A stretch of 64,000 bases of DNA, from positions 3,029,875-3,093,874 of the forward strand of contig CBDCPK010000005.1 of NCBI GenBank assembly GCA_965220195.1, read 5' to 3'. Position 1 is the first letter of the stretch. Each line of letters begins with the position of its first letter. A program made the translations under genes and the position numbers. This stretch comes from an uncultured Candidatus Binatia bacterium. GTDB taxonomy: Bacteria > Desulfobacterota > Binatia > Bin18. Of the stretch, positions 29,881 through 46,152 are shown one piece after another. Under the pieces are notes generated by a model. It was not told the DNA's origin and made no database searches. It was given only the letters and a program-made list of their open reading frames with translations.

Positions 29881-29892
29881 GGAAAGGGGCAA

Positions 29893-30123
29893 GTGATGAG
29901 CAAGCTACGTCAGTTCTTCCGGCCGGCAGAGAGGTATGAGGACGGCCGGTTTAAGACCTATGATGATATGAGTGAGGAAGGGAAAGCAGCTACGAAGTTG
30001 CGGCTGAAGTTTATAGGCATCATGCTCTTGATTACCGTGCTCGGTCTTCTCCTTGCATGGGAGGGGTACAAGCACAACAGAGAAATGGAAGCACAGGGGA
30101 AAGAAGGCTTCTATTTGTGGTGA
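29893..30123 (+). CDS. Hypothetical small membrane protein (76 aa)
   Basis: One predicted TM helix (IGIMLLITVLGLLLAW). GGGGCAAG RBS-like. Confidence 0.3.
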   Translation: MMSKLRQFFRPAERYEDGRFKTYDDMSEEGKAATKLRLKFIGIMLLITVLGLLLAWEGYKHNREMEAQGKEGFYLW

Positions 30124-30235
30124 CAACGAGGCTCTGAGGTAGAGATGAAATTCCCTAGAGGGTGTTAGGCACTTCTGACAACCTATTGATTTTATGTAGG
30201 TTTTTTACAGAGCCACACAATGCCGCCCTCTATTT

Positions 30236-30372
30236 TGCTGTTCCCGAGGGGCCCGAAAACGCGGCAGTTTCGGCAGCATGCCGGGAACAGTAACTGTCCA
30301 GCGATTCCAAAGGGTTAGCCCTTGAAAAAAAAGCTGTTCCGCTGTTCCCGACCTCTAATGGGGAACAGAAAG
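30236..30372. promoter_or_regulatory. Array of CTGTTCC/GGGAACAG inverted and direct repeats upstream of hsdR (candidate operator region)
   Basis: CTGTTCCCG-N35-CGGGAACAG with a nested CCGAAA/TTTCGG hairpin. Second palindrome CTGTTCCC-N11-GGGAACAG. Tandem CTGTTCCGCTGTTCCC and GAACAGAAAGAACAG. Confidence 0.4.
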
Positions 30373-30462
30373 AACAGAAAATATGACCATACGCTGACAA
30401 TGGACGAGGCGGTACTATGCTGGCGCAAGAGGGTGAGATGTGATGAATGAAAGAATCCCGCC

Positions 30463-32871
30463 ATGCAGAAGACCCGTCTCAGCGAAAGCGATGTCCGCGC
30501 CAAGTATATTACGCCAGCCCTGCATCAGGCCGGCTGGGACGAGGCGCAGATTCGGCGCGAGGTCAGCTTCACCAAGGGCCGCATTATCGTGCGCGGCAAG
30601 CTGGTCAGCCGGGGTGAGGGCAAGCAGGCCGATTACGTCCTGCACTACAAGCCCAACCTCCCCATTGCGCTGATTGAAGCCAAGGACAACATGCACGCGG
30701 TTGGTGATGGCATGCAGCAGGCCCTGGGCTATGCCGAGACGCTGCATATCCCCTTTGTTTTTTCCTCCAACGGCGAGGGTTTTGTGTTCCACGACCGGAC
30801 CGGCCTGAGCCCTGAGCGGGAAACCACCCTCAGCCTGGACGCCTTTCCCGCGCCGGCCGAGCTGTGGGAGCGCTATCGTGCCTGGAAGGACCTGACACCA
30901 GAGGCCGAGTCCGTTGTTTCGCAGGACTATTTCAGCGACGGCGGCGGGAAGACCCCGCGCTACTATCAGGTCAACGCCATCAACGCCGCCATTGAGGCTA
31001 TTGCCAAGGGCCGCGAGCGCCTCCTGCTGGTCATGGCTACCGGAACGGGCAAGACCTATACCGCCTTTCAGATCATCTGGCGGTTGTGGAAGGCGGGCGG
31101 TAAAAAGCGCATTCTGTTTCTGGCCGACCGCAATGTGCTGATTGACCAGACGATGGTCAACGACTTCCGGCCTTTCGGTCCGGCCATGGCCAAGCTGTCG
31201 CCCAGGGCCGGGACCATCGAGCGCGCGGACGGTGCCTCCGAGGACCTGAGCGCCGCGATTGACCGCAGGCGGCGGATTGACACCTCGTATGAAATCTATC
31301 TCGGCCTGTACCAGGCCCTGACCGGGCCGGAGGACCGTCAGAAAGTCTTTCAACAGTTTTCGCCCGGCTTCTTCGACCTGATTGTGATTGACGAGTGCCA
31401 CCGCGGCAGCGCGGCCGAGGATTCGGCCTGGCGGGAAATCCTGGACTATTTCTCGTCCGCCACCCACATTGGTCTGACGGCCACGCCCAAGGAAACGGCC
31501 TATGTGTCCAACATCGAATACTTTGGCGAGCCGGTCTATACCTACTCGCTCAAACAGGGCATCCACGACGGATTTCTGGCCCCCTACAAAGTCATCAAGG
31601 TGCATATCGACCGCGACGTAGAGGGCTACCGACCCGAATCCGGCCAGTTGGACCGGGACGGGCACGAGGTCGAGGACCGCCTCTACAACACCAAGGATTT
31701 TGACCGCAATCTGGTATTGGACGAACGGACCAAGCTGGTGGCCCGCAAGATCACCCAATTCCTGAAGGAAAGCGGCGACCGCTTCCAGAAGACGATTGTC
31801 TTCTGCGTTGACCGGGAGCACGCGGCCCGGATGCGCCAGGCCCTCATCAACGAGAACGCCGCCCTGGTAGGCGAGAATCACCGCTATGTCATGCGGATCA
31901 CCGGCGGCGACACCGAGGGGCAGGCTCAACTGGACAACTTCATTGACCCGGAATCCCGATACCCCGTATTGGTCACCACTTCGCGTTTGCTCTCGACCGG
32001 GGTGGATATCCAGACCTGCCGGCTCATCGTGCTTGACCGGGAGGTGGGCTCCATGACCGAGTTCAAGCAGATTGTCGGTCGCGGCACCCGTGTGCACGAA
32101 GACACACGCAAGTTCTACTTTACGCTGATGGATTTTCGGGGCGCGACCGGTCATTTTGCCGACCCGGACTTTGACGGCGAGCCGGTGCAGATATACGAAC
32201 CCGGCGAGGACGATCCCATCACGCCGCCCGACGACGAAACAACGCCCCCGCAACCGGGCGAGGATGAGACGATTGTAGATGGTCTGCCACCCGATAGGCA
32301 GAAACCCCGCAAGATATATGTGGATAGTGTGAGCGCCGGCATCGTTGCCGAGCGGGTTGAGTATCTGGACCAATACGGCAAGCTGGTCACCGAGTCCTTA
32401 CGTGACTTTACCCGAAAGGCGCTGAAAAAGCGCTTTGCCAGCCTGGACGATTTTCTCCGGCGCTGGAAAGCGGCCGAACGCAAGCAGGCCATTCTTGAGG
32501 AATTGGCTGCCGAGGGGCTGGCGCTCGACACGATTGCCCAGGAACTCGGCAAGGACCTCGACCCTTTTGACCTGATTTGCCATGTAGCTTTTGACGCCAA
32601 GCCGCTGACCCGGCGCGAACGGGCTGAAAACGTCAAGAAGCGCGACGTGTTCGCCAAGTACGGAGACCGGGCCCGCACCGTGCTCGACGCATTACTCGCC
32701 AAGTATGCCGACGAGGGCGTGCTGAATCTGGACGATACCAACGTGCTGCGCATCCCACCCTTGAGCAACCTGGGCACCCCGCTGCAGCTTCTTAAGGCCT
32801 TTGGCGGCAAGGGAAGGTTCGTCCAGGCCGTTCACGATCTGCAAGCCGAGCTGTATAGGGAGAGCGCGTAA
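30463..32871 (+). CDS. hsdR: Type I restriction enzyme R subunit (HsdR)
   Basis: The N-terminal SESDTRAKYITPALHQAGW motif is classic for HsdR. Walker A GTGKT and DECH box (VIDECHRGS). Helicase C domain. Confidence 0.9.
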   Translation: MQKTRLSESDVRAKYITPALHQAGWDEAQIRREVSFTKGRIIVRGKLVSRGEGKQADYVLHYKPNLPIALIEAKDNMHAVGDGMQQALGYAETLHIPFVFSSNGEGFVFHDRTGLSPERETTLSLDAFPAPAELWERYRAWKDLTPEAESVVSQDYFSDGGGKTPRYYQVNAINAAIEAIAKGRERLLLVMATGTGKTYTAFQIIWRLWKAGGKKRILFLADRNVLIDQTMVNDFRPFGPAMAKLSPRAGTIERADGASEDLSAAIDRRRRIDTSYEIYLGLYQALTGPEDRQKVFQQFSPGFFDLIVIDECHRGSAAEDSAWREILDYFSSATHIGLTATPKETAYVSNIEYFGEPVYTYSLKQGIHDGFLAPYKVIKVHIDRDVEGYRPESGQLDRDGHEVEDRLYNTKDFDRNLVLDERTKLVARKITQFLKESGDRFQKTIVFCVDREHAARMRQALINENAALVGENHRYVMRITGGDTEGQAQLDNFIDPESRYPVLVTTSRLLSTGVDIQTCRLIVLDREVGSMTEFKQIVGRGTRVHEDTRKFYFTLMDFRGATGHFADPDFDGEPVQIYEPGEDDPITPPDDETTPPQPGEDETIVDGLPPDRQKPRKIYVDSVSAGIVAERVEYLDQYGKLVTESLRDFTRKALKKRFASLDDFLRRWKAAERKQAILEELAAEGLALDTIAQELGKDLDPFDLICHVAFDAKPLTRRERAENVKKRDVFAKYGDRARTVLDALLAKYADEGVLNLDDTNVLRIPPLSNLGTPLQLLKAFGGKGRFVQAVHDLQAELYRESA

Positions 32872-32874
32872 TTC

Positions 32875-34335
32875 ATGTCCGTTCGCACTCTGGTCAAATC
32901 CATTCAGGACATCATGCGCCAGGACACGGGCGTGGACGGTGACGCCCAGCGTATCAGTCAGTTGTGCTGGATGTTCTTTCTCAAGATCATTGACGACCAG
33001 GACCAGGAAATGGAGATGGAGAGGGAGGGGGAGGGCTACACGTCCCCTATACCCGAGCAGTTTCAATGGCGGACCTGGGCGGCCGACCCCGAGGGCATGA
33101 CCGGTGAGGAACTGTTGAACTTTATCAACGCCGACTTGTTCCCGTCGCTGAAGAACCTGGAAATTGACCAGGCAGGAGCCCGTAGCCGCGTTGTGCGCGA
33201 TGTTTTTGAGGATGCCTACAACTACATGAAGTCCGGCCAGTTGGTGCGTCAGGTGGTCAACAAGATCAACGATATTGACTTTAATGACCTGACCGAGCGT
33301 CAGCATTTCGGCGACATCTACGAGCAGATTCTCAACGACCTGCAATCCGCGGGCAATGCCGGCGAGTATTATACGCCCCGCGCCGTAACCGCCTTTATGG
33401 TTGATCGTATCGACCCCAAGCCGGACGAGACCGTATTCGACCCGGCCTGCGGGACCGGTGGCTTTTTGACCTGTGCACTGCGTCACATGCGTGAGCGTTA
33501 TGCCAAACGGCCCGAAGACGAACCGACCATACAGGCTGCCCTGCGTGCCGTTGAAAAGAAGCAGCTCCCCCACATGCTGTGCGTGACCAATATGCTGCTG
33601 CACGGCGTTGAAGACCCGAGCTTTGTGCGCCACGACAACACCCTGGCGCGGCCCTACATTAGCTGGGAGCAAAAGCACCGGGTGGACATTGTCCTGACCA
33701 ACCCGCCTTTTGGCGGCAGGGAGGAAGACGGTATTGAGGCCAACTTTCCGAAAGAGTTTCGGACCAAGGAGACCGCAGACCTGTTCCTGGCTCTTATTAT
33801 CCGCCTGCTGAAGCCGGGTGGGCGCGCCGCCGTGGTGCTGCCCGACGGCTCGCTGTTTGGCGAGGGCGTCAAAACGCGGCTCAAGGAGCACTTGATGGAG
33901 GAGTGCAACCTGCATACCATCGTGCGCCTGCCCAATTCCGTGTTCCGGCCGTATGCCTCTATCGGCACCAATCTGCTGTTCTTTGAGAAGGGCGCACCAA
34001 CCACTGACATCTGGTTCTACGAGCACCGCGTGCCCGCAGGTCAGAAAGCCTATTCCATGACCAGGCCGATCCGGCTGGACCATTTACAGCCCTGCATCGA
34101 CTGGTGGGGTGGGGCGGAGCGCACGGACCGCACGGAAACGGAGCGCGCCTGGAAGGTGACCGCCGAAGCCGTCAAGGCGCGCGGCTACAACCTGGACATC
34201 AAAAACCCGCATACCCAGGCAGACGACCTCGGCGACCCGCAAGAACTGCTGGCCAAGCTCAGCGCAACCGAGGCCGAGGTCACGGACTTGCGGGACCAGT
34301 TAAAGGCGATATTGGCCGAGGCGTTGCTGCGGTAA
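32875..34335 (+). CDS. hsdM: Type I restriction-modification N6-adenine DNA methyltransferase M subunit (HsdM)
   Basis: NPPFGG catalytic motif, SAM-binding FDPACGTGGFL, and the HsdM N-terminal domain. Starts 4 nt after the hsdR stop. Confidence 0.9.
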   Translation: MSVRTLVKSIQDIMRQDTGVDGDAQRISQLCWMFFLKIIDDQDQEMEMEREGEGYTSPIPEQFQWRTWAADPEGMTGEELLNFINADLFPSLKNLEIDQAGARSRVVRDVFEDAYNYMKSGQLVRQVVNKINDIDFNDLTERQHFGDIYEQILNDLQSAGNAGEYYTPRAVTAFMVDRIDPKPDETVFDPACGTGGFLTCALRHMRERYAKRPEDEPTIQAALRAVEKKQLPHMLCVTNMLLHGVEDPSFVRHDNTLARPYISWEQKHRVDIVLTNPPFGGREEDGIEANFPKEFRTKETADLFLALIIRLLKPGGRAAVVLPDGSLFGEGVKTRLKEHLMEECNLHTIVRLPNSVFRPYASIGTNLLFFEKGAPTTDIWFYEHRVPAGQKAYSMTRPIRLDHLQPCIDWWGGAERTDRTETERAWKVTAEAVKARGYNLDIKNPHTQADDLGDPQELLAKLSATEAEVTDLRDQLKAILAEALLR

Positions 34336-34395
34336 GGGCCGCTTGCAATCCACCGTTTCAGCCCCTCTCTCGCTCTCCTCTGTGGCCTTCATATC

Positions 34396-34456
34396 CCCTC
34401 CTTGGAGGGGTGGCCCGAAGGGCCGGGGTGGGTTCCTTTTCGCATCACACGTCCCG
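34396..34456. repeat. Third (inverted) copy of the 43-bp GGAACCCACCCC unit fused to the GTGGGTTCCTTTTCGCATCACACGTCC element
   Basis: CCCCTCCTTGGAGGGGTGGCCCGAAGGGCCGGGGTGGGTTCC is the reverse complement of 3819-3861. It is followed by a near copy of 3955-3985. Confidence 0.55.
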
Positions 34457-34593
34457 AGAGGAGAGAAGAGCACAGGCCTGTCCTTTACCACCGTATTGGA
34501 ACGCCTCCGGCTCATCCAACCTGCGGAACGAGTTTGATGCATACGGCTATTCCCCCTAAATTTGACTGATCCTAGTCATAAGGGGAATCACTC

Positions 34594-34890
34594 TTGAATA
34601 AATCCCGTCAAGCCAGGCAGACCGGCCCGGCACGGACTTCCGGCTGGAAGCTGGGAGAGGCCAAGGCAAAGTTCAGTGAACTCGTTCGCCTTGCCGCGTC
34701 CGGGCAGCCGCAACGGGTCACGGTTCACGGGAAGGACGCCGTGGTCATCGTCGCGGCAGACACATTCGAAGCCCTCCAGGCGCGGGAGCAATCGGGCAGC
34801 TTACACGAACTCCTGTCCCAATCTCCGCTGAGCCGTATCACGTTCGGTGGAGATAGTGTTCGGAGTCCGGTCCGTGAGTGTGCGTTGTGA
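34594..34890 (+). CDS. Phd/YefM-family antitoxin-like protein
   Basis: WKLGEAKAKFSELVR...VTVHGKDAVVIV matches the Phd/YefM N-terminal fold. TTG start after an AAGGGGAA RBS. Confidence 0.55.
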   Translation: MNKSRQARQTGPARTSGWKLGEAKAKFSELVRLAASGQPQRVTVHGKDAVVIVAADTFEALQAREQSGSLHELLSQSPLSRITFGGDSVRSPVRECAL

Positions 34891-34936
34891 ATAGCGCTTG
34901 CCTCTCTCGTCTTTCTATTTCACAATGGTCTCCATG

Positions 34937-35149
34937 AACACGGTCACTGTTCGCCTGGATGCAGAGCTTGCCCTTGAGTTGACAAAACTCGCGAAACGTA
35001 CGGGACGCCCCAAAAGCGAGTTGATTCGCCGTGCGTTACGCCGCCAACTGGCATTGGCTCGTTTTGAAGAACTGCGTCAGGGTGTCGCGCCGTTCGCAGA
35101 GGCCAGAGGGTGGCTTACGGATGAAGACGTTTTCCAGAACGTCTCATGA
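34937..35149 (+). CDS. Ribbon-helix-helix (CopG-like) antitoxin
   Basis: MNTVTVRLDAELALELTKLAKRTGRPKSELIRRAL is a typical RHH. Its stop overlaps the vapC start. Confidence 0.6.
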   Translation, partial: NTVTVRLDAELALELTKLAKRTGRPKSELIRRALRRQLALARFEELRQGVAPFAEARGWLTDEDVFQNVS

Positions 35150-35541
35150 GGGTATTCTTGGACACCAACGTGCTGGTTGCCGCCTACGCGACGCGCGGAC
35201 TTTGTGAGGATGTCTTTCGAGTCATATTAGCAGAACACGAACTCGTCGTGAGCGAGACCGTGCTCGCCGAATTTGAGCGCGTCCTGGTGCAGAAGCTCCG
35301 CTTGCCTCTTCCGCAAGTAAAAACACTGTCATCTTTCTTACGAAGACAGGCCGACATCGTTGACCCTGTCGCTCCCTCCGTGTGGCCGAAACGTGACCCG
35401 GACGACCGATGGGTCGTTGCGGCAGCGATAGAGGGAGGCGTTGATTTTCTTGTCACTGGTGATCGTGACCTGCTTGAAGTCGCTGCTGAAGTGCCCGTTT
35501 CCATCGTCTCGCCGCGAACGTTCTGGGAGCAACTTCGTTAG
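35146..35541 (+). CDS. vapC: VapC-family PIN-domain toxin
   Basis: MRVFLDTNVLVAA N-terminus, with conserved Asp/Glu positions later in the sequence. Confidence 0.8.
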   Translation: MRVFLDTNVLVAAYATRGLCEDVFRVILAEHELVVSETVLAEFERVLVQKLRLPLPQVKTLSSFLRRQADIVDPVAPSVWPKRDPDDRWVVAAAIEGGVDFLVTGDRDLLEVAAEVPVSIVSPRTFWEQLR

Positions 35542-35678
35542 TCCGCAGGGTGGCTGAGGAAAATGTCAGGTGAAGCTTCGCTCACTTGGCCTACGAGGCT
35601 GTTGGCCGGTTACACTCCTAAAGCATTGCCAAAAAGTAGCCTATACGCTACTGGAGGGTATGCCTGGGAGATGAGCAT

Positions 35679-35999
35679 ATGGCAAGGCGCACCATTCCGT
35701 ACGAAGACCTCCTCTATCAGGACCTCCAAGACCCCGAAGAGGCTGTGGCGTATCTGAACGCTGCCCTGGACGACGAATATGCACAGGGGGCAGAGGTCTT
35801 TCTCTTAGCCCTCCGTGATGTTGCCAAGGCTCGTGGTATGAAACAACTCGCTCAGGACACGCAACTCAGCCGGGAGAGCTTGTACCGAACATTGTCCCGT
35901 AAGGGGAACCCTCGCTTTTCCACGCTTGAGGCCGTGTTGAAGAGTCTTGGGCTGAAACTGAGTGTGACGGTGAAGCCCCCGGAAACAAAGGCTGCCTGA
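35679..35999 (+). CDS. HigA-family addiction-module antidote protein (orphan)
   Basis: DPEEAVAYLNAALDD...LLALRDVAKARGM...SRESLYRTLS matches the TIGR02684-like antidote family. No killer partner is detected upstream. Confidence 0.6.
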   Translation: MARRTIPYEDLLYQDLQDPEEAVAYLNAALDDEYAQGAEVFLLALRDVAKARGMKQLAQDTQLSRESLYRTLSRKGNPRFSTLEAVLKSLGLKLSVTVKPPETKAA

Positions 36000-36005
36000 C
36001 CTCCG

Positions 36006-36065
36006 CGTTACCTCTTCAATGAATGCCGAACACCTGCTCACCCACTTCGACCGCATAGCCGACGC
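36006..36065 (+). repeat. Direct repeat 1: duplicated 5' end of hsdS (about 50 bp plus GCCGACGC)
   Basis: CGTTACCTCTTCAATGAATGCCGAACACCTGCTCACCCACTTCGACCGC matches 36804-36852 with two mismatches. Confidence 0.7.
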
Positions 36066-36109
36066 GGCGCAGGTGACGCTTCGCTCGCCTAGGCTACGAG
36101 GCTGCCGAT

Positions 36110-36604
36110 ATGACTAAACCACGCGTGTATGTTGAGACCACGATTCCCAGCTTTTACCACGAAGAGCGCTCTGCTCCCGACATCGTAGCGCGCCGGGAAT
36201 GGACGCGGCGATGGTGGGACAGTGCGCCCGAGCACTACGAGCTTGTCACCAGCCCGGCCGTTCTGGACGAGCTGGCCCGCGGGATCCCGGAACGCAGTGA
36301 GAGACGCCTGTCGCTGGTGCGCAATCTCCCGCTCCTGCCCGTCGAATTGGCTATCACCGAGATCGTCCAAGGGTATATCAGGCACAAGCTGATGCCGGCG
36401 GATCCTGGTGGTGACGCCTTGCACTTGGCGCTCGCCTCCTACCACAAATGCGACTTTCTGGTAACGTGGAATTGTCGACATCTGGCAAACGCGAACAAGT
36501 TTGGCCATATCCGCCGTGTGAATACGATGCTCGGCCTTTTTATTCCGGCGCTCGTGACCCCGTTGGAACTCTTTGGAGGGAGCGATGAAACAGAATCAGA
36601 GTGA
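36110..36604 (+). CDS. PIN-like domain protein (putative VapC-like toxin)
   Basis: C-terminal DALHLALASYHKCDFLVTWNCRHL resembles the PIN C-terminal motif. The N-terminus (VYVETT) has Glu in the first acidic position. Confidence 0.5.
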   Translation: MTKPRVYVETTIPSFYHEERSAPDIVARREWTRRWWDSAPEHYELVTSPAVLDELARGIPERSERRLSLVRNLPLLPVELAITEIVQGYIRHKLMPADPGGDALHLALASYHKCDFLVTWNCRHLANANKFGHIRRVNTMLGLFIPALVTPLELFGGSDETESE

Positions 36605-36782
36605 CCCGGTGATTGATGAGATTCGAGAAGTGCGGCACCGCATCTCGGCGTGCTTTGGCCATGACCCCACACGGTTGGTAGCCTTCTACATGGAAATGCA
36701 GAAGCAGTACCAGGACCGGCTGATTGAGACCGCAAAGAGTTCTCAGGATAAGGATAACCAGCAATCTGACACGGCGCTTTAA
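36585..36782 (+). CDS. Small partner protein of the PIN-like gene (putative antitoxin), 65 aa
   Basis: Overlaps the PIN-like gene's 3' end by 20 nt. Charged helical protein. Confidence 0.4.
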   Translation: MKQNQSDPVIDEIREVRHRISACFGHDPTRLVAFYMEMQKQYQDRLIETAKSSQDKDNQQSDTAL

Positions 36783-36803
36783 CGCGCGAACAGCTCGCCG
36801 CAT

Positions 36804-36863
36804 CGTTACCCCTTCAATGAACGCCGAACACCTGCTCACCCACTTCGACCGCCTCGCCGACGC
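36804..36863 (+). repeat. Direct repeat 2: authentic 5' end of hsdS
   Basis: Partner of 36006-36065. Contains the hsdS start codon at 36817. Confidence 0.7.
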
Positions 36864-38532
36864 ACCGGACGCTATTCCGCGCTTGCGCCGGTTTATTCTT
36901 GATCTGGCGGTACGCGGCAAGCTGGTGGAGCAGGACCCGGAGGATGAGCCGGCGGGGGAGCTGTTGAAGCGGATTACGCCTGAGAAGCAACGACTTGTGG
37001 CTGAGGGGAAATTCAAATCGCTAGATACTACCGAATTCGATAATGGAGCAGAGAATGTTTCATTCTCAATCCCTGCTAATTGGGTGTGGTGTCGCCTGGA
37101 TGATATAGCAGCAATTGCCAGAGGCGGGTCGCCACGACCCATCAAAGCTTATCTCACGGATGACAGGGACGGCATCAACTGGATAAAGATCGGCGATTCA
37201 GAGAGAGGCAGTATCTACATAAACGAGACGAAAGAAAAAATTCGGCCTGACGGCCTAAAGAAATCAAGAATGGTCTTCCCCAATGATCTGATTCTATCGA
37301 ACTCTATGAGTTTTGGTTATCCATATATCTTGAATATTCAAGGATGCATACACGACGGATGGTTAGTCATACGAACTCCAGATGGTTTGTTGGATAAACT
37401 GTTTCTCTACAATTTGCTCCTTTCAAGCCATTCTAGGAACACGTTTTCAAATGCTGCGGCAGGGGCAGTAGTACAAAATCTAAATGCGGATAAGGTGCGG
37501 AGGCTTTCCATCCCCCTCCCACCCCTTGCCGAACAACACCGCATCGTCGCCAAAGTTGATGAACTGATGGCCCTGTGTGACCGGCTGGAAACAGCGCGGG
37601 AGGAGCGGGAAGCGACACGCAACCGACTGGCAACGGCAAGCCTCGCCCGCCTCAACGCACCCGACCCCGACCCGGCGGTCTTTCAGAACCACACGGCCTT
37701 TGCCCTCAACAACCTCACTCCGCTTACTACCCGTCCAGACCAGATCAAGGCGCTACGTCAGACCATCCTTAACTTGGCGGCACGGGGGAAGCTGGTGGAG
37801 CAGGACCCGGAGGATGAACCGGCGGGGGAACTGTTGAGAAAAGTAGCTGAGACCCGGAAGGCTCTAGTCGCTGAACGTAAAATGAAGCGTTCAAAGGACC
37901 TGCCGCCAGTAGAGGATCAAGAGATTAAGTTTGGTATACCAGCAGGATGGGCCGTTACTCGTATGGGCGTCGCGTATGACGTTCGTGACGGAACTCATGA
38001 CTCACCGAGGTACGTTGATGAGGGGTATCCACTTATCACTAGCAAAAACCTATCTTCCGGGTACTTATCCTTTGACGAGACGAAATTGATTAGCGAAGAG
38101 GACTACATTAAAATCTCGCAGCGATCTGCAGTCGTAAAAGGCGATATACTTTTGGCGATGATTGGGAGCATCGGAAATCCAGTGATCGTCGATACTGATC
38201 AACCATTCGCAATCAAAAATGTCGCCCTGCTAAAATATTTTGATCCAGACTATTCTAATCCCAGATTTTTACGGTTTTTCCTTCTAAATGCTGCTAACGA
38301 GATGAAGGCTCTTGCTGCCGGTGGTTTGCAACCATTCGTCTCACTTAGTTTCCTGCGAAACTATCCTCTTGCTCTTCCGCCGCTTGCCGAACAACACCGC
38401 ATTGTTGCCAAGGTTGATGAACTGATGGCGGTGTGTGACCGGTTGGAGGCGAGCCTTGCTGGGGGTGAGGAGACGCGGGGGCGGTTGGTGGAAGCGGTGT
38501 TACATGAGGCGTTGGCGCCAGAGTTGCACTGA
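36817..38532 (+). CDS. hsdS: Type I restriction-modification specificity subunit (HsdS)
   Basis: Two target-recognition domains. The duplicated conserved regions LAxRGKLVEQDPEDEPAGELL and LPPLAEQHRIVAKVDELMAxCDRLE each occur twice. Confidence 0.85.
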   Translation: MNAEHLLTHFDRLADAPDAIPRLRRFILDLAVRGKLVEQDPEDEPAGELLKRITPEKQRLVAEGKFKSLDTTEFDNGAENVSFSIPANWVWCRLDDIAAIARGGSPRPIKAYLTDDRDGINWIKIGDSERGSIYINETKEKIRPDGLKKSRMVFPNDLILSNSMSFGYPYILNIQGCIHDGWLVIRTPDGLLDKLFLYNLLLSSHSRNTFSNAAAGAVVQNLNADKVRRLSIPLPPLAEQHRIVAKVDELMALCDRLETAREEREATRNRLATASLARLNAPDPDPAVFQNHTAFALNNLTPLTTRPDQIKALRQTILNLAARGKLVEQDPEDEPAGELLRKVAETRKALVAERKMKRSKDLPPVEDQEIKFGIPAGWAVTRMGVAYDVRDGTHDSPRYVDEGYPLITSKNLSSGYLSFDETKLISEEDYIKISQRSAVVKGDILLAMIGSIGNPVIVDTDQPFAIKNVALLKYFDPDYSNPRFLRFFLLNAANEMKALAAGGLQPFVSLSFLRNYPLALPPLAEQHRIVAKVDELMAVCDRLEASLAGGEETRGRLVEAVLHEALAPELH

Positions 38533-38601
38533 CGATATTCTTAACTTAGTTACATGCGAATTATCCGTCTACGAACGATAGCGGATTGTAGAAGGTGATG
38601 G

Positions 38602-39894
38602 ATGGAACTAGAGAAGATAAAAAGCGTGGATGAGTACCTACGCTCTTTACAATCTTTGCGCAATGCACATGCCTACAGGTATAGGGGACAATCTAACAGT
38701 GCATGGCCGGTATGCTCCTCATGGGCTCGCGCATTTAAAGGCCAAACACATTGGGACTGCCTTTCCTACCATTCAGACCTGATACGCGATTTTCCTTCCT
38801 TTGATTCTCTACCTGGATACGTAAGAGACCTTTCCAGAGAGAATCCGAGTCTTCTTACAGATTGGGATAAAGTAGCAATTATACAGCATTATGGAGGTGA
38901 GACTGGAAAAAAGACTATACTGACCGACTTTACTATAAGGCCGCTTATTGCCCTATGGTTCGCTTGTCAAGAAAAGGAGCACCGGAAAGAAGACGGAAAA
39001 GTCTTTGCTGTTTCAATTGATATTTTAGACGAGGTAGGGCTCCCGCATATCGATGATTATATTCGGGGCAACCATTCAGATTTGTACACTCTCGATAGAT
39101 CGTACCTATTTCCTACAAGTTTTCAGTACAATCCCAGAGGCAATACCAGAAGTCCTCACAAAAGCTATGTTTCTCGGATCGATAAGCAAGCATCATCCTT
39201 TGTCCTAGGGATTGAGAGGGTTGAGGAGGCTAAATGCAAATCAGTCATAATTGAGGCCAGCAGCAAGAAGCGAATACTCAATGAGTTGCGCTACTTTTTC
39301 TCCATATCAGAGAAAGCGCTCATGGATGATTGGTATGCTCTTGGCGAGGCTGTAGCGAACGGCAAGGAGGTGTCTACCGACGGTTTTACCGATGCTGAGT
39401 ACTATAACTTAGCGAAGGATATTAGTTTGTTACATAGACAACCGAGGGCTGGGCGTCCTTATTTTGAGGAAGCCCTCCAATACTGGCATTCTCAGAGAGA
39501 TCGTAGAGAGGCAATGGTTAAAGCCAGTTACTCTGATGACGCCGACCGAGAAAGAGTGCGTTGTTACATGAATCAAGCAGGAGCGCACTATTACATGAAT
39601 ACGGCTTGGACGATCTACTGTCTTGAGGATGCAGATGAGGGGGAGACACGGCGTGCTTGTGGTTATGCCCACAAGGGTTTTGATATGGCTAGCTATGATC
39701 CACAGCGTCCCGGATTCGCTGTAGTCTATGCCCTTTGTCTACTGAGATTGAATAAGGAAAAAGCCGCATACGATTTATGCAGGAGAGAACTCGATTTCTA
39801 CGAGCACTCTGCCCCCGCCTTCTGTACGGGCAAGAATTCTCCTTCTATTGATAAATTGAGAAGGATAGTGAACATTTATGAGGCTCACCATTAG
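38602..39894 (+). CDS. FRG-domain protein
   Basis: The N-terminal YRYRGQSNSAWPV motif is the FRG signature. Low G+C. GAAGGTGA RBS. Confidence 0.65.
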   Translation: MELEKIKSVDEYLRSLQSLRNAHAYRYRGQSNSAWPVCSSWARAFKGQTHWDCLSYHSDLIRDFPSFDSLPGYVRDLSRENPSLLTDWDKVAIIQHYGGETGKKTILTDFTIRPLIALWFACQEKEHRKEDGKVFAVSIDILDEVGLPHIDDYIRGNHSDLYTLDRSYLFPTSFQYNPRGNTRSPHKSYVSRIDKQASSFVLGIERVEEAKCKSVIIEASSKKRILNELRYFFSISEKALMDDWYALGEAVANGKEVSTDGFTDAEYYNLAKDISLLHRQPRAGRPYFEEALQYWHSQRDRREAMVKASYSDDADRERVRCYMNQAGAHYYMNTAWTIYCLEDADEGETRRACGYAHKGFDMASYDPQRPGFAVVYALCLLRLNKEKAAYDLCRRELDFYEHSAPAFCTGKNSPSIDKLRRIVNIYEAHH

Positions 39895-40080
39895 CAATCT
39901 CTCATTGATTAACTAGACGCTCACACCTCTGGCAACCCAACCCCACGAACTCCACAAAATTTCCCTAGAAGCAGCCTGACTTCATCTGGACGATTTTCAC
40001 TTGTCCGATTGCGAGCGGATGGGATGCAAGCCAGGGACTCCTTCACCCTCACCCTCTATAGGGGAGAGAGAATAGGACAG

Positions 40081-40125
40081 GGACAGGGCTGGGAATGTCG
40101 GATTACGCCGCCGGTTCATCCGACC
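40081..40125 (+). repeat. 45-bp direct repeat, copy a (GGGAATGTCGGATTACGCC...)
   Basis: About 85 percent identical to 41703-41745 in the same orientation. Confidence 0.55.
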
Positions 40126-40183
40126 TACGGGACGCTCTTGAAGCCGTTGACAACATGTCCCATATCCGGGACACTATTCTTCC

Positions 40184-40516
40184 GTGAGGCCCGCCTTCTT
40201 TCATCCCAAAGCGAGAGACATCTTGCGGACTTTTCCAGAAACAGTACGAAAAGAGTTGGGCAAGGCTATTATAGATTTGCAGAAAGGGGCTTCTGTAGGC
40301 CCGCCCCTCTCTCGGCCTATGCCGTCCGTGGCTCTAGGGACAAATGAACTCAGAATCCGTGATCGTACGGGAATTTATCGAACCTTTTACTATACAAAGG
40401 CAGCGCGTGGGGTCTTGATCTTTCACGCGTTTATTAAAAAGACGCAGAAAACGCCGTTACGAGAGATTGAGACCGGAAGGAAACGGCTTAAGGAGATGCT
40501 CCATGAACTCAGCTAA
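40184..40516 (+). CDS. higB: HigB-like toxin (RelE/ParE superfamily, Gp49-like)
   Basis: LRIRDRTGIYRTFYYTKAARGVLIFHAFIKKTQK matches the Gp49/HigB family. GTG start. Confidence 0.65.
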   Translation: MRPAFFHPKARDILRTFPETVRKELGKAIIDLQKGASVGPPLSRPMPSVALGTNELRIRDRTGIYRTFYYTKAARGVLIFHAFIKKTQKTPLREIETGRKRLKEMLHELS

Positions 40517-40802
40517 ACCTGTCGTTGCAGAAGACGCGACTGCGCTGGCGGAAATTTTAGGACTGACTCCCATTGATGGAGCGGAAATCCAGTTGCGGAG
40601 CGACTTGAATGACAAAATTATTGAGGTTGTGGAGAAAAGCGGACTCACCCACGCTCAGGTTGCCAAACTGGCTCGGACTTCCCGGTCCCGTATGACGGCA
40701 ATTCTCAACCGTAATACCCAAGATGTCTCTACTGACCTGATGCTCCGCATCATGGCCGGCTTAGGCTATCGGGCCAAACTGACCTTCTCACGGGTGGCGT
40801 AG
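40503..40802 (+). CDS. higA: HigA-like XRE-family HTH antitoxin
   Basis: HTH motif LTHAQVAKLARTSRSRMTAIL. ATGA overlap with the higB stop. Confidence 0.7.
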   Translation: MNSAKPVVAEDATALAEILGLTPIDGAEIQLRSDLNDKIIEVVEKSGLTHAQVAKLARTSRSRMTAILNRNTQDVSTDLMLRIMAGLGYRAKLTFSRVA

Positions 40803-40986
40803 CCGACTTCTTCAGCCCCGTAGCCTCCGTCTCATCCGACCTCTGGAACTCAGCGGGTTCGTTGCCTGATATGGACTAGGCGGAAGATGGCACATCTAAG
40901 AAGTTGACAAGCTAATTTGAGACGCATATGGTTTTGCTGTGACTGACAGAGTTGCCTGAGCGACTCGCTGAAGTCAGTCGCCTTCA

Positions 40987-41020
40987 ACGCTAACTTTTGG
41001 TGGTTAGCGTTTTTCTTTTT
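40987..41020 (+). terminator. Rho-independent terminator (8-bp stem ACGCTAAC/GTTAGCGT plus T-run)
   Basis: Perfect 8-bp stem with an 8-nt loop, followed by TTTTTCTTTTT. The same bases encode the Lys-rich C-terminal tail of the convergent minus-strand PIN gene. Confidence 0.5.
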
Positions 41021-41292
41021 ACGGATTTTCCCGGTCGGTTTTTTCTTGTCTTTTTGTCATCCAGGTCGGTCAGGAGCCTGTCGATTTCGTCGTCTGTCCG
41101 TCCGTGGAGCCGGACGAGACGCGGACGGCGCAACACGGACGAATACTCGTTGAGCAGGTCGTCCGACATGAGGTAAAGGAGGTCGCCATCAAGCATGGCG
41201 TCCAGTATCCGTGCTGGGGGACTGCTCGAATCCGCGCCGATCAGCCCCGAAACGATGACATTGGTGTCGATAATACAAGCCTTCGGCGTCAT
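40990..41292 (-). CDS. PIN-domain toxin (VapC-like)
   Basis: ACIIDTNVIVSGL PIN N-terminal signature. Basic C-terminal tail. Confidence 0.7.
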   Translation of the reverse strand: MTPKACIIDTNVIVSGLIGADSSSPPARILDAMLDGDLLYLMSDDLLNEYSSVLRRPRLVRLHGRTDDEIDRLLTDLDDKKTRKNRPGKSVKRKTLTTKS

Positions 41293-41334
41293 CGGCTCTC
41301 TTCCGCACCTCTCGAACTTGGCCGCTGACGCCGC

Positions 41335-41580
41335 TCAGCGCGACTGCTCGTCACGAAAACGTCTTGTTTCCTCGACTGCCAGGGCCATCGCGTCGGGAGC
41401 GTTCAATCCAAACTGCGCTCGCGCCTTGGCGACAATCTCCTTGGCGGTATCGTAGGGTCGGATCCCTCTCAGTTCCAGGCTTTCCTCGATGATTGAAGCC
41501 ATGGAACGATTCTGCCGGGCCGCCGCTTCCTTCAGTGCCCGGTGTGTCCGGTCGGCTAAACTGATGGTCAGGCGGGGCAT
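41335..41580 (-). CDS. Ribbon-helix-helix antitoxin partnering the PIN toxin
   Basis: MPRLTISLADRTHRALKEAAARQNRSMASIIEESL is an RHH fold. Located upstream of the toxin on the same strand. Confidence 0.6.
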   Translation of the reverse strand: MPRLTISLADRTHRALKEAAARQNRSMASIIEESLELRGIRPYDTAKEIVAKARAQFGLNAPDAMALAVEETRRFRDEQSR

Positions 41581-41702
41581 GAGGATACACTCCTGTTCAT
41601 AAGCGCCGATTCAATGCTGCAAGCACCATAACACCATACCGACAATCTACATGTCCCACTCTTCAAAGGGAACTCTCCCCCTCGCGAGTCTCGGGGATGT
41701 CG

Positions 41703-41745
41703 GATTACGCCCCCGGCTCATCCAACCTATAGGGCTATGGGCGAC
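41703..41745 (+). repeat. 45-bp direct repeat, copy b (GGGGATGTCGGATTACGCC...)
   Basis: Partner of 40081-40125. Confidence 0.55.
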
Positions 41746-41861
41746 CCGACTCCCCTCTCGGGACGTGTAATACATATTAGGCTGTGACCGATGGAGTAGG
41801 TCCCTCTGAAAGCGGAGTCAACAGGGGCTGGGGGAGAGCGACGGGGTTCATTGCATCGTAT

Positions 41862-44510
41862 TCAACGTCGTTTCTCGGTAAACTCTTGTCGGATTTCTGT
41901 CACGGTATCCCTGATCTCCGCAGGTAGGGGTTCAAGTTCTTCGCCCAATTCTTCCCGTACAGCGTGCCAGAGCGGCTCCATTGGCTCGGCCAGTCCGGCT
42001 TCCTCCATTATCTGCTTGACGCGCGGGCCGTGGCCGGCGGCGACGGCCCGGATCAACGACTCTGTTAAACTAGGCCATTCCTGTTCCTGGAAGTCGCCGC
42101 CGATGCGTAGCGCGTGTTCGATCTGGTCCAGCGCTTCTGTCCATTGGCCACGATGAGCCAAGACATCGGAGAGCGTTTGAAAAGTGCTCGGATTCTTCGG
42201 CCCCAGTTCTATCGCGCGGCGGGCGCATTCCTCGGCCTCCAGCAGACGCGCGGCGTCATTCTGGTCAAGAATCGCTGTTGCCAGAATACGCCATGCTTCA
42301 TCATACGTCGGTGCGATATCCGTCGCCCTTCTACAACCAGCTTCCGCTTCATCGTGCCTTCCAAGTACGTTCGATAACCGACCGCCAGCTATCAGCCATT
42401 TTGCGACTGGACGACGTAGTTCCATCGGGTCGTTTGAGCGTACATAATCCGAGGAACGTTGAAAAATGGCGGCTACGTCTTCGTACCGTTTCAGGCCACC
42501 AATGCTAATGGCTTTTCTGCCTAGCGCTCTAATGGCTACATCACGCAGTTCCTTTGGGTCCTCCGTGCGGACATACTCGGTGGTCCGCTCCCAAGCAGCG
42601 GTGGCTTTTTCGTTGCGTCCCAGCTTGGCAAGAAGGTCACCCTTGGCGTTGAACGCCTCGGCGGCCAATTGGCGTAAGTCCACAGAGTCATCTGGATGGA
42701 CGTATTCCGTGACACGCTGCCAAGCAGCGATAGCCTCTTCATGACGACCCAATTTGGTGAGAGCCATGCTGTTGGTCCCGTGAGCCCAGGCGGCCATGTT
42801 GCGCAATTCTACCGAGTCATCCGGACGGATATATTCCGATGCCTGCTCCCATGTGGCGATGGCGTCTTCGTGCCGCTCCAGTTGGAAAAAAGCAAGGCCC
42901 TTGCTTGCCAATGCCGCGACGACTACGCCGCGTAATTCTGGCGAACCAGACGGACTCGTCTGCTCCAAGACACGATCGGAGGCGGCTATGGCGTCTTTGA
43001 AACGGCCCTCTTCAATCAGCGTGACGCTGCGTTCCACCCACTCGACAAGACGCTCTAGGCTTGCTTTATCTTGGCCTGCAAACGCCTCCTGAATTTTCTC
43101 AACGACCGGCGCGTTCGGACTGATAAAGTTCTTAGCAAGATCGAGCGCCTCGCGTTGCCAGTCCTCCCGCCCTTTGAAGTCCGTATCTCCAGCTACGTAG
43201 CCAGCCAGGATGGTGAGCCAATCGGACGCTTCTCCGCCGTGTGAGCCGTTCACTCGTAACGCCGACAGTACCGCCGGATACATCATCCGCATTCCGGATG
43301 GACCGAAAAGATCGTGAAGGAAGGCGACGAGTCGCTCTAAGCGGTGCCGGCCTGCACGCGAGAAGCGTAGCAGATAGTAGATGTTGTAAAATCGATCGCT
43401 GACTTCATATCGTATCCGCTTTGCTCCTCGTAGCCGGATCTCTTTTGCATAGCCCTTTTCCATAAGTTGCTTGAGTTGGGCGCTAGCGTGCGAGGAGTTT
43501 AGATTCGCGGCGTCGGCAACCTCCCTCGCCAGCATCGGCTTCCATCCCTCCGCGAGACAGTGAAATACTTTGCGGGACTGACCCGGTAATTCCTCGATCC
43601 GGGCTTTGAAATAAGGCGTCTGTTCGTCGATGAGCCGTTCCAGATCCTCAAAGGCAGAGCCGAGCGGCGATTCGATCAGGAGCCGACAGGCAAGAACCAG
43701 CAACCGCGGGTTCCCGCCCGTCAGCCGACGCAGGGTCTCCAGCCGGCCACGTTCATGACGCAGGGTTTCCGCAATTCCTGGCTTGCCGTCGCAAGCCGCG
43801 AGTGTTTCAAGTATGCGGAGAGTCTCTTCCTGCCCCAGACCTTCGAGCAGGAAGAGCCGGAAGAACTCGTAAAACGGCTCGCCGTGTCCTCGGATGGCTT
43901 CGAAGACGGCGTTAGCAGAACCGACCAACAGGATATTCGGACATTCAATCAGACTGGCCCGCAACGCGTGAACTTCGCGCTCGTCGCGCAACTGCTCGAA
44001 GACGGCGTCGAGGTTCTCGACGAACAGGATCAACCGTTTGCCGCTTGCCCGGCAAAAGTCCATAAGCGCTGCGAGCGCGTACGCGGCGAGCCGTTCCGTG
44101 TCTCTTTCGTCCTGGGCTAGAGCGTTGGCTCTGTCCTCCCACTGCGAGTCCTCGGTGGCGCGGGTCAGATGGCGCAGAGCGACAAGCCAGAAGTCCGCCA
44201 AGTTACCGACATCGTAGCTTTCCTCGTAGAACGGGACGGGTTGCCAGTTCGCGGCAAGGTCGGGCGACTCTCCAACTGCGTGCAGAAACCGTAGCCCAAG
44301 GGTAGTTTTTCCCATTCCGCGCGGGCCGATGAGCAGCATATGCTGACACGGTCGTCCGCGCTGCTGCTCGCGAATCAGGCGGAGCATCTCTGCGAGAGTT
44401 TTTTTACGAGCGACGAACGACGCCTTCAACTCGTCAGGAGTAAGCTGGGCCGGGTTGTACAGACGCTGGCGGATCATGACGCGACACTCCCGTGGTATTT
44501 CCGCCACCAT
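41862..44510 (-). CDS. STAND-like P-loop NTPase with winged-helix and C-terminal TPR array (882 aa)
   Basis: Walker A GPRGMGKTT. Walker B hhhhD(VEN)LD. Winged-helix region. At least 8 TPR-like repeats with a recurring A..W/Y..A pattern. An alternative start at 44477 gives a 4-bp overlap with the upstream gene. Confidence 0.7.
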   Translation of the reverse strand: MVAEIPRECRVMIRQRLYNPAQLTPDELKASFVARKKTLAEMLRLIREQQRGRPCQHMLLIGPRGMGKTTLGLRFLHAVGESPDLAANWQPVPFYEESYDVGNLADFWLVALRHLTRATEDSQWEDRANALAQDERDTERLAAYALAALMDFCRASGKRLILFVENLDAVFEQLRDEREVHALRASLIECPNILLVGSANAVFEAIRGHGEPFYEFFRLFLLEGLGQEETLRILETLAACDGKPGIAETLRHERGRLETLRRLTGGNPRLLVLACRLLIESPLGSAFEDLERLIDEQTPYFKARIEELPGQSRKVFHCLAEGWKPMLAREVADAANLNSSHASAQLKQLMEKGYAKEIRLRGAKRIRYEVSDRFYNIYYLLRFSRAGRHRLERLVAFLHDLFGPSGMRMMYPAVLSALRVNGSHGGEASDWLTILAGYVAGDTDFKGREDWQREALDLAKNFISPNAPVVEKIQEAFAGQDKASLERLVEWVERSVTLIEEGRFKDAIAASDRVLEQTSPSGSPELRGVVVAALASKGLAFFQLERHEDAIATWEQASEYIRPDDSVELRNMAAWAHGTNSMALTKLGRHEEAIAAWQRVTEYVHPDDSVDLRQLAAEAFNAKGDLLAKLGRNEKATAAWERTTEYVRTEDPKELRDVAIRALGRKAISIGGLKRYEDVAAIFQRSSDYVRSNDPMELRRPVAKWLIAGGRLSNVLGRHDEAEAGCRRATDIAPTYDEAWRILATAILDQNDAARLLEAEECARRAIELGPKNPSTFQTLSDVLAHRGQWTEALDQIEHALRIGGDFQEQEWPSLTESLIRAVAAGHGPRVKQIMEEAGLAEPMEPLWHAVREELGEELEPLPAEIRDTVTEIRQEFTEKRR

Positions 44511-45670
44511 TCCCGCAAGAGATTCGAGCGGAATTTCAGGTGACTGTCTTCCTGTTTTACGTAACCGTCGGCCTCCAGGTCGCGGAGCACGGACTGGAAC
44601 GTTTGCTCGTTGCGCTGTCGCAACTCTTCGAGTTCCGCGAGAGCCACACCGTCCTCTCGCCGGCAGACGCGGCTCAGGATATCACGTGCCGCTTCGTGTT
44701 CGTTCTCGTCAAATGCAATTTCGAGGCGCGCTGCATAATGGTCCAGATGGGCGGTGCCACTGGCTCCCGCCAGACGTTCCGCGAAACACCGCTCAATCAC
44801 TTCCAACGAAACGTGAGAAGCTTCGCCTCTGCAAGCATCGCGAAGCGCCGAGAAGAAAAGCTGAACATGGTACGGAACGGGCTCCCGCAGCAGGTCCAGG
44901 ATATGCGTGATAGCTTTTTCGTCGAGAGGAAAACTAGAATCACCGCCCAGCCCTTTCAGAAATTCGACAGCGGTCGGCCTGTTCCACGAGTCCAGGCGGA
45001 ACGGAGAGAGATCGTTAATCAGCCCTGAAAGGCCCGCGCGGCGCAGGACTCCTTCAAGTCCGATCGATCCGCCGACAAGTGTACGGACCCTGGTGCGCAA
45101 TTCTGGCGCTTGGCGCCAAGACCGAAGCCTGGACAGTAGTAATTCAGCATCATGTTTCCGCTCCTCATTCCGCAGCATCCGCGAAAGGAGGAGCGGTAGT
45201 TCATCAATGATGATCAGAAGATTCCCGCCGGTGTCCGGCAGGCTCGTCAGGCGCGCCGTGAGTTGGTCCGCAGCGTGGTCCCACTCACGGCCAATCGCCC
45301 GTCTGAGTTCGACACGCACTATGCCAGTATCAACACTGGCGGACAGGCGTCCAAAGACACCCTTGATGGCGTTCGAGAATGGAATCGCCTCGAAACGGCT
45401 TCGATATTGAGGATTGGCTGCCAGAGCAGCGATAATCGCCGCCATGCAGTCCGCCGGGTCGTCCCCACTTTCAACATCCACATAGATGACATCCCAGTTC
45501 TCGCGCGGCGCGCGGCGGAGCTCCAGCATTAAGCTGGTCTTGCCCACCCGCCTGGGGGCGAGCATTAGAATGTGCTCTCCTTGTTCCAGCTTTTCCCAGA
45601 GGCGGGCTATCTCGTAATCTCGTCCATAGAGGTCGTCGCCGACGACTGCCTGGCCAGTGACGTTGCGCAT
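44474..45670 (-). CDS. AAA+/ATPase_2-type P-loop ATPase with C-terminal winged-helix-like region (398 aa)
   Basis: Walker A APRRVGKTS. Walker B LLIIIDE. Same family architecture as the N-terminal half of the downstream gene. AGGAGA RBS and an AT-rich promoter with a TTGCCAAAAA duplication. Confidence 0.7.
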   Translation of the reverse strand: MRNVTGQAVVGDDLYGRDYEIARLWEKLEQGEHILMLAPRRVGKTSLMLELRRAPRENWDVIYVDVESGDDPADCMAAIIAALAANPQYRSRFEAIPFSNAIKGVFGRLSASVDTGIVRVELRRAIGREWDHAADQLTARLTSLPDTGGNLLIIIDELPLLLSRMLRNEERKHDAELLLSRLRSWRQAPELRTRVRTLVGGSIGLEGVLRRAGLSGLINDLSPFRLDSWNRPTAVEFLKGLGGDSSFPLDEKAITHILDLLREPVPYHVQLFFSALRDACRGEASHVSLEVIERCFAERLAGASGTAHLDHYAARLEIAFDENEHEAARDILSRVCRREDGVALAELEELRQRNEQTFQSVLRDLEADGYVKQEDSHLKFRSNLLREWWRKYHGSVAS

Positions 45671-45953
45671 ATATGAATCTCCTGTGGAGATTTTAGTGTG
45701 GCACCACGATAAATGACAAAGATATTTTTGGCAATAGATTTTTTGGCAAAAATTCTGATGTTATCTTTTGGTAAGGAGAAAATACTGCTAGGACAAAGAC
45801 TTAAAATCGCTCGTGAAGCGTAAGCCACCAAACGGCAGGAATGCGTTTGATCGTTCCGTTCAAGGGGAGGCGAGGCTACGAGGAGAGCCGATCAGATTTC
45901 TTTGGGGGGCAAAAACGTATCCACGAAACCACGAGGGGAAGTCACAGAGACGT

Positions 45954-46055
45954 CGCTCAGCGCGATTGCTCTTCACGAAAACGTCTTGTTTCCTCGACTG
46001 CCAGAGCCATCGCGTCGGGAGCGTTCAATCCAGACTGCGCTCGCGCCTTGACGAC
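45954..46055 (-). pseudogene. Truncated duplicate (3' about 100 bp) of the RHH antitoxin gene at 41335-41580
   Basis: About 90 percent identical to 41332-41433. No start codon and no intact ORF. Confidence 0.6.
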
Positions 46056-46152
46056 AAGACTAAGGCAAACTGTCCTCCCGCCTCCAGTTTAACAGAAGTA
46101 GTCTTATCGGACGTAATCTGCCTCAACGTAGTGCGAGACCTACTGTCCGGCA

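Follow-up and report, generated by a model that had tools for sequence, protein, structure and literature searches.

An FRG-domain gene beside a type I restriction-modification operon in Candidatus Binatia is retained by relatives that have lost the operon

The window analysed here is the whole stretch of 64,000 nucleotides taken from contig CBDCPK010000005.1 of an uncultured Candidatus Binatia bacterium (assembly GCA_965220195.1, positions 3,029,875 to 3,093,874), and the gene in question encodes a 430-aa protein with an N-terminal FRG domain. It lies directly after hsdS, the last gene of a type I restriction-modification (RM) operon, as the original prediction had noted: the open reading frame (ORF) is real and begins 69 bp past the hsdS stop at 38532, on the same strand. 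In the sequences compared below, this FRG gene is inherited together with hsdS, yet maintained without the RM system, and probably works as a sensor-effector gene in its own right. The RM genes and the parts of the FRG gene are as follows.

30463-32871, + strand: hsdR, with full-length type I matches in PADLOC and Pfam
32875-34335, + strand: hsdM, with full-length type I matches in PADLOC and Pfam
36724..38532, + strand: hsdS, matching Pfam Methylase_S and PADLOC Specificity_I (1e-126), with internal repeats D3/D4
38591..38598, + strand: Shine-Dalgarno-like GAAGGTGA, read from the sequence a few bases 5' of the FRG ATG
38602..39894, + strand: FRG-domain coding sequence, 430 aa, ATG start, stop included (ORF list and translation)
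38602..39351, + strand: N-terminal alpha/beta FRG domain (residues 1-250), with a predicted ADP-ribosyltransferase (ART)-like fold
38674..38988, + strand: match to Pfam FRG PF08867 (residues 25-129), spanning the YRG and DFT..PLIALWFA motifs
Residues 25-37 of the FRG protein, + strand: YRYRGQSNSAWPV motif, from the translation
39037..39162, + strand: insert inside the FRG domain (residues 146-187), longer in the Binatia clade and predicted to be disordered (predicted local distance difference test, pLDDT, <50)
39391..39888, + strand: all-helical, TPR-like solenoid by model (residues 264-429), Cys/Tyr-rich and clade-specific in sequence
39691..39810, + strand: sub-threshold TPR-type match (ANAPC3, TPR_19, TPR_16; residues about 364-404)

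The RM operon upstream of the FRG gene is apparently intact. Translation of hsdS probably begins only at position 36817, with an in-frame ATG, and the hsdS orthologue at locus L001 is 572 aa long. Neither a sigma-70-like promoter nor a terminator was found in the gap between hsdS and the FRG gene, and an Rfam scan of 38300-41900 gave zero matches.

The assignment to the FRG family, made originally from the motif alone, was borne out by Pfam, with PF08867 matching above its gathering score (E value of 2.9e-13; 51 bits against a cut-off of 25; profile positions 3-93 of 94). The (F/Y)RG motif of the family is present as Y27-R28-G29. A word-indexed search of 5.8 billion proteins returned six close orthologues (71-91% identity) and one distant protein, and a profile search added 77 proteins, mostly of about 505 aa, in which the FRG domain is followed by canonical TPRs and which are 21-30% identical to the query. 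Ten residues (R28, G29, H96, T101, D109, R192, Q196, K222, L229 and D243) are invariant in all 85 sequences, and the DFT..PLIALWFA motif is near-invariant across them. A genome scan with an alignment of eight sequences identified six loci and placed P0004 and P0005 in metagenome-assembled genomes (MAGs) of Candidatus Binatia. The protein also matched 14 PADLOC models of the PDC-S15 set, best PDLC04938 (7.4e-20, residues 1-245); no NCBIfam model matched. The PDC sets hold 145 phage defence candidates, not yet assayed according to their source paper, which were collected by 'guilt-by-embedding' as genes inside RM, BREX and DISARM systems, with PrrC named as the paradigm of RM-embedded defence; the searchable supplements of that paper mention neither PDC-S15 nor FRG. 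The recurrent linkage of FRG genes to RM loci, put forward in the original prediction, is correct and had already been published. Papers that mention FRG genes describe them as strain-specific accessory genes on plasmids or islands.

The junction between hsdS and the FRG gene is kept at every orthologous locus, but the state of the RM genes varies between relatives.

Window: hsdR, hsdM and hsdS full-length
L001 (P0001): hsdR, hsdM and hsdS full-length
L002 (P0001): hsdR and hsdS full-length; hsdM called as two pieces, of 392 and 92 aa
L024 (P0002): hsdR, hsdM and hsdS full-length
L025 (P0003): hsdS present; the contig ends inside hsdS, before hsdR and hsdM
L005/L008 (P0004): hsdM with an in-frame stop; hsdR with an internal deletion of ~375 bp and a frame break; hsdS half-length
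L006/L007/L009 (P0005) and L023 (P0006): hsdR through most of hsdS gone; a 139-bp 3' remnant of hsdS abuts the FRG ATG

Despite this decay or deletion, the FRG ORF is intact in L005, L006/L007/L009 and L023, and none of the seven orthologous FRG ORFs has a frameshift or an internal stop. L006 and L023 share exactly the same deletion junction, so the loss of the RM genes is older than the split between these two loci. Their FRG genes have since accumulated 64 non-synonymous and 38 synonymous differences, with a ratio of non-synonymous to synonymous rates (dN/dS) of 0.42 (p = 1e-4 against neutrality). Across all pairs of the seven ORFs, dN/dS ranged from 0.34 to 0.68 and was significantly below 1 in 20 of 21, and both halves of the protein were constrained in the four loci compared half by half. 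The FRG gene thus does not obligately co-occur with functional hsd genes (decayed in L005; deleted in L006, L007, L009 and L023), and the suggestion that the protein might be an accessory or regulator of the type I system was not supported; since the gene is intact in relatives after RM loss, it probably stands alone and is not an accessory of restriction. No other conserved neighbour was found beside it among the orthologous loci: a Gp49/HigB-HTH_37 pair follows in some relatives, and HTH_3-Peptidase_M78 and DUF3368 genes in others.

The FRG gene of the RM-less relatives shows some further peculiarities. The Shine-Dalgarno-like site GAAGGTGA is kept in L001 and L005 and deleted in L006, where a second deletion (L006 9859-10003; also present in L023 and L009) took the 69-bp hsdS-FRG spacer together with this site. 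The hsdS remnant that now precedes the gene is out of frame with the FRG ATG, and offers a GGGAGG sequence ~8 nt upstream of it, so translation may be preserved. Between L006 and L023, the FRG gene differs at ~8% of sites (dS 0.16) and the 630-bp upstream flank, comprising a 116-aa gene and the hsdS remnant, at 3.3%, a difference that hints at faster evolution of the FRG gene, or at an exchange of alleles, in these sequences.

The original prediction had named conservation outside RM contexts as evidence against itself, and in the wider FRG family this is largely what was found, most members lying outside RM loci in mobile or defence surroundings. Context was sampled for five FRG+TPR relatives located on long contigs. 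Their neighbours include a transposase; DruA with two integrases; an integrase with MNT/HEPN and TIR genes; and toxin-antitoxin genes; two of the five adjoin an RM-type N6-methyltransferase gene. For distant FRG genes in Opitutales, Dehalococcoidia and an unclassified MAG, tblastn detected no Hsd homologue within 10 kb. Plasmid copies adjoin an integrase and Dnd genes, ParA-RHH and RepB, or unrelated genes, and the phage protein family phrog_4962 also matches FRG. Most of the sampled FRG and FRG+TPR genes thus have no RM gene within 8-10 kb. RM adjacency is recurrent but a minority situation, and the common denominator is accessory, mobile, conflict-related DNA. Two of the distant FRG+TPR relatives, P0080 and P0083, carry ~100 additional N-terminal residues ahead of the FRG domain, which on visual inspection resemble a winged-helix module for DNA binding; the gene immediately downstream of P0083 is type IIG-like (HSDR_N_2-N6_Mtase-Eco57I).

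The low GC content reported for the FRG gene was confirmed (45.5%, and 44% at third codon positions, against 55.1% for the window; hsdR, 60.7%; hsdM, 59.4%), is common to all orthologues and is compatible with a foreign origin. The gene is AT-richer than hsdS as a whole (52.0%), as had been stated, but not than the two target-recognition segments of hsdS, which are at the FRG level (~46%) between conserved segments of 58-60%. The conclusion that the gene was acquired separately was not supported, because these recognition segments are equally AT-rich and hsdS and FRG are inherited as one block: over 10.4 kb (30419-40815), the window is 90-94% identical to L001/L002. The flanks of this block differ (tRNA-Ser/SnoaL and SDR/PTPS in the window; ADH/DUF1326 and CoA-transferase/Mrp in L001/L002), which implies either movement of the block or rearrangement of the region.

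An AlphaFold2 model of residues 1-255 reached a predicted template modelling score of 0.72, with pLDDT above 90 in the core strands. Its best structural neighbours are Tpt1/KptA, the RES toxins MbcT and ParT, DarT and the cholera/pertussis-type toxins, together with other proteins of ART type (heat-labile enterotoxin, diphtheria-type toxins, PARPs, TccC3, Scabin, Arr and CopC); the scores of these matches to the ART superfamily are weak and their enrichment is strong. A Foldseek search of the PDB with this model gave nothing significant, and its top ranks were likewise ARTs. No relative was found in the PDB by a sequence search with a profile of 15 FRG domains, in which the sole match, to a cystatin (E value of 0.49), was attributed to chance. 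The FRG domain is predicted from the model to resemble the ART superfamily, in agreement with the published prediction. As the alignment is read here, R28 would be located on the first core strand, and D109-F-T111 on the next one, followed by a helix. The arginine on the first core strand, within the YRG motif of FRG, appears to be shared with the ART enzymes (Tpt1/KptA, MbcT, ParT, DarT and the cholera/pertussis-type toxins). Q196-x-S198 would occupy the place expected for the E/Q-x-E site of toxin-type ARTs and no glutamate is invariant there, so the classical catalytic glutamate appears to be missing, as in Tpt1 and the RES enzymes. The link between Frg and ARTs was reportedly introduced by Burroughs and Aravind in 2020.

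The C-terminal half, in which no motif had been recognised at the outset, is a degenerate, fast-evolving TPR-like domain, according to its model, its sub-threshold matches and its position. It was modelled as a helix-hairpin, TPR-like solenoid, and takes the place of the canonical TPRs of its nearest relatives outside the clade, the FRG+TPR family of ~505-aa proteins. When the C-termini were searched alone, ANAPC3, TPR_19 or TPR_16 matched at the same place in five of the seven orthologues (E values of 1.5e-4 to 0.39, and up to 0.41 over all such sub-threshold matches) and were essentially the only Pfam matches; a full-length profile matched only TPR proteins in the PDB. In a phmmer search of 1.84 billion representative proteins, residues 256-430 recovered only a small Candidatus Binatia clade. 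A eukaryote-like multi-VWA protein that also matched the tail was discarded as spurious, as its score was the sum of nine repeated weak matches. The Cys/Tyr richness that had been noticed is real: Cys makes up 3.4% and Tyr 8.6% of the C-terminal 175 residues, whereas eight neighbouring proteins have 0.8% and 2.4%. The tyrosine excess may be in part a consequence of AT-rich codon content. A zinc-binding or disulfide-bonded domain was considered and rejected: of the six cysteines in the C-terminal half, C393 alone is shared by all seven orthologues, and CxxC motifs are absent, which makes a metal or disulfide motif unlikely.

The protein shares with PF08867 and PDC-S15 its Pfam match, its 14 model matches and a type I RM locus resembling the contexts from which the PDCs were drawn. 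However, the gene follows the last RM gene instead of being embedded between RM genes, and it differs in its clade-specific C-terminal half and its longer disordered FRG insert. The nearest relatives outside the clade are the metagenomic FRG+TPR proteins (P0007-P0083; ~505 aa), one of which is named 'FRG domain-containing protein, Deltaproteobacteria bacterium'. They have the same domain order and invariant FRG residues, but are only 21-30% identical to it; the region corresponding to residues 146-187 is much shorter in them, and their tail is ~280 aa long and made up of canonical TPRs with strong Pfam and PDB matches, whereas that of the Binatia protein is ~170 aa long, Cys/Tyr-rich and below all TPR thresholds. 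DSR2 is a single polypeptide in which an N-terminal SIR2 NADase is joined to an alpha-solenoid at the C terminus, by which a phage protein is recognised. By analogy, the same effector-sensor layout may be proposed for the FRG protein, although DSR2 has a SIR2 rather than an ART-like fold, is much larger and has no sequence relation to it. PrrC of EcoprrI is likewise a non-RM effector encoded by a gene genetically tied to hsd genes, but it is an ABC-ATPase/anticodon nuclease and needs its RM partner, whereas the FRG gene survives RM loss and its effector domain is unrelated. The literature or the databases already contain the FRG domain, with a predicted fold, a status as a defence candidate and an association with RM; particular to this locus are the degenerate TPR-like tail of a subfamily specific to Binatia and a natural experiment on maintenance without RM. 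FRG is a widespread domain, a predicted NAD+-using immune effector and a catalogued defence candidate. The locus adds a divergent member to the family rather than a new kind of system, and is a compact single-gene case with natural controls, namely relatives with intact, decayed or deleted RM genes. These controls already argue that the FRG gene works alone, and make the locus a useful test case for the FRG family.

We tentatively favour the interpretation, to which we would give somewhat less than an even chance, that the product of the gene is a conflict or defence protein of the FRG family (a PDC-S15 candidate) which acts as a single polypeptide and independently of RM. An independent defence gene was the better of the two options in the original prediction: independence from RM was borne out by the intact FRG genes left after RM loss, and the defence role keeps its candidate status. 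In the proposed mechanism, the FRG domain would belong to the ART superfamily, as a divergent member, and would use NAD+, either hydrolysing it as an NADase or transferring ADP-ribose to a target, and the acceptor might be a nucleic-acid phosphate, as for Tpt1/KptA. The TPR-like tail would keep the enzyme inactive and bind a phage-derived protein or peptide; such binding could free the enzyme, which would stop the infected cell in an abortive infection. The place beside hsdS would then reflect co-inheritance within a defence island, and possibly shared transcription, rather than functional dependence. Several points weigh against this interpretation. The mean pLDDT of the N-terminal model is only 68. 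As the alignment is read here, Ser198 follows the invariant Gln196 at the position expected for the catalytic glutamate of R-S-E ARTs, so classical transferase chemistry is not guaranteed. No TPR hidden Markov model scored above the Pfam cut-offs in the C-terminal half of the protein or of its orthologues, the hhalign comparison of the clade C-terminus with the TPR part of the FRG+TPR family was marginal (P of 5.8e-4, probability 29%), and the TPR-like model may have been biased by the TPR proteins in the alignment. The dN/dS values indicate only moderate constraint, both the trigger and the target are postulated, and no experimental study of any FRG protein was found in the searchable literature.

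It is unlikely, in our assessment, that the protein is instead a PrrC-like guard, silenced by or monitoring HsdMS/HsdR through its TPR-like tail and freed by a phage anti-restriction protein or peptide as a second, suicidal line of defence. Such a role would fit a gene that follows hsdS immediately and in the same orientation, across 69 bp free of terminator-like sites, and a junction kept in all orthologous loci that still hold RM genes. It would also fit the entry of the FRG family into PADLOC through embedding in RM, BREX and DISARM systems, in a paper whose paradigm is PrrC, the methyltransferase neighbours of two of the five FRG+TPR relatives, and the peptide binding that is typical of TPR domains. 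However, a guard would not be expected to stay intact under purifying selection after a shared loss of hsdR, hsdM and most of hsdS, or beside the decayed RM genes of L005, and RM genes are absent within 8-10 kb of most of the FRG and FRG+TPR genes that were sampled. A variant of this proposal with a new chemistry is, in our view, quite improbable: the protein would be an ART-fold enzyme without the classical catalytic glutamate, acting like Tpt1/KptA on nucleic-acid phosphates or on another unconventional acceptor, with a tail that in this clade reads either a phage anti-restriction peptide or the state of the type I enzyme encoded next to it, in the manner of a PrrC-style guard, and its persistence after RM loss would reflect a second, RM-independent trigger.

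A non-immune role, as a selfish or maintenance element of mobile DNA (toxin-like addiction or exclusion) or as a non-enzymatic scaffold or regulator travelling with islands, plasmids and phages, appears rather unlikely. Plasmid FRG genes do adjoin replication/partition genes and integrases, the phage family phrog_4962 (function unassigned) and the accessory regions described in the literature contain FRG, all orthologues have a low GC content and toxin-antitoxin modules surround the gene; but no antitoxin-like partner is conserved, the downstream neighbour varying between relatives, the fusion of an effector with a repeat sensor is typical of immune proteins, and the PADLOC models match. The relatively high dN/dS (up to 0.68), the small indels and variable ends among orthologues, and the faster divergence of FRG than of its flank between L006 and L023 (~8% versus 3.3%) could also be read as signs of a decaying hitch-hiker, a functionless remnant kept by a recently transferred block. 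We consider this highly improbable, given that all seven orthologous ORFs are intact, that dN/dS is significantly below 1 in all but one of the 21 pairs and that the residues invariant over the 85-sequence family, at 21-30% identity, have been retained.

The RM-FRG block is part of an island of RM, toxin-antitoxin and STAND genes that extends from a tRNA-Ser gene over ~29313-46100, with housekeeping-type genes restarting at 46153 (an SDR). The other features of the island are listed below.

29224-29312: tRNA-Ser(TGA), 1.1 kb upstream of hsdR
34501-34522, 40105-40126, 40821-40842 and 41707-41728, + strand: 22-nt repeat GCCNCCGGNTCATCCRACCT, four copies versus 0.01 expected
34898-35541: embedded RHH+PIN, between hsdM and hsdS
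35679-35999: embedded dnstrm_HI1420 antitoxin, between hsdM and hsdS
36110-36604: embedded PIN gene, between hsdM and hsdS
40091-40127 (~200 nt after the FRG stop) and 41693-41729, + strand: extended, hairpin-forming copies of GCCNCCGGNTCATCCRACCT (GTCGGAT...ATCCGAC)
40184-40516, + strand: Gp49/HigB-like toxin, GTG start, 95% identical to a PF05973 protein of L025
40467-40802, + strand: HTH_37 antitoxin (HTH_37 match), its start overlapped by the Gp49/HigB-like ORF
41327-41435 and 45949-46057: 109-nt direct repeat, 94% identical, bracketing two STAND NTPase genes
41862-44510, - strand: STAND NTPase with AAA_16, HTH and TPR
44474-45670, - strand: STAND NTPase, nSTAND1-like

No integrase was found at the island, nor an attachment (att)-type repeat of the tRNA-Ser 3' end at its far side; a 17-nt, 88% match to that end (D12) was dismissed as probably due to chance. 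The Gp49/HigB-HTH_37 pair downstream of the FRG gene is a separate toxin-antitoxin module; in L001, no gene was called at the place of the Gp49/HigB-like ORF, though the DNA is 94% identical. Both copies of the 109-nt repeat match overlapping coordinates of one stretch of L005, adjoining a PIN_3/RHH pair, and no STAND-domain gene was called within 10 kb downstream in L005; the STAND pair therefore looks like an insertion.

The GCCNCCGGNTCATCCRACCT copies are confined to the island and lie at the borders of gene modules: three of them follow hsdM, FRG and the HigB/HTH_37 pair, respectively, and the fourth precedes the STAND genes. Together with an upstream GTCGGAT they can form a 7-bp hairpin, the copy after hsdM having TTGGA/TCCAA instead. 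Similar copies are intergenic in L001, L005 and L006, and the element could be a repetitive extragenic palindromic (REP)-like element or a recombination site. The cassette between hsdM and hsdS varies between loci, with RHH/PIN in the window, PhdYeFM/PIN in L005 and NYN in L024. Upstream of the PIN gene at 36110-36604, the window holds an 83-nt copy (82% identical) of the 5' coding end of hsdS (36006-36088 versus 36804-36886), which points to the start of hsdS as the site of insertion of the embedded cassette, or of recombination with it.

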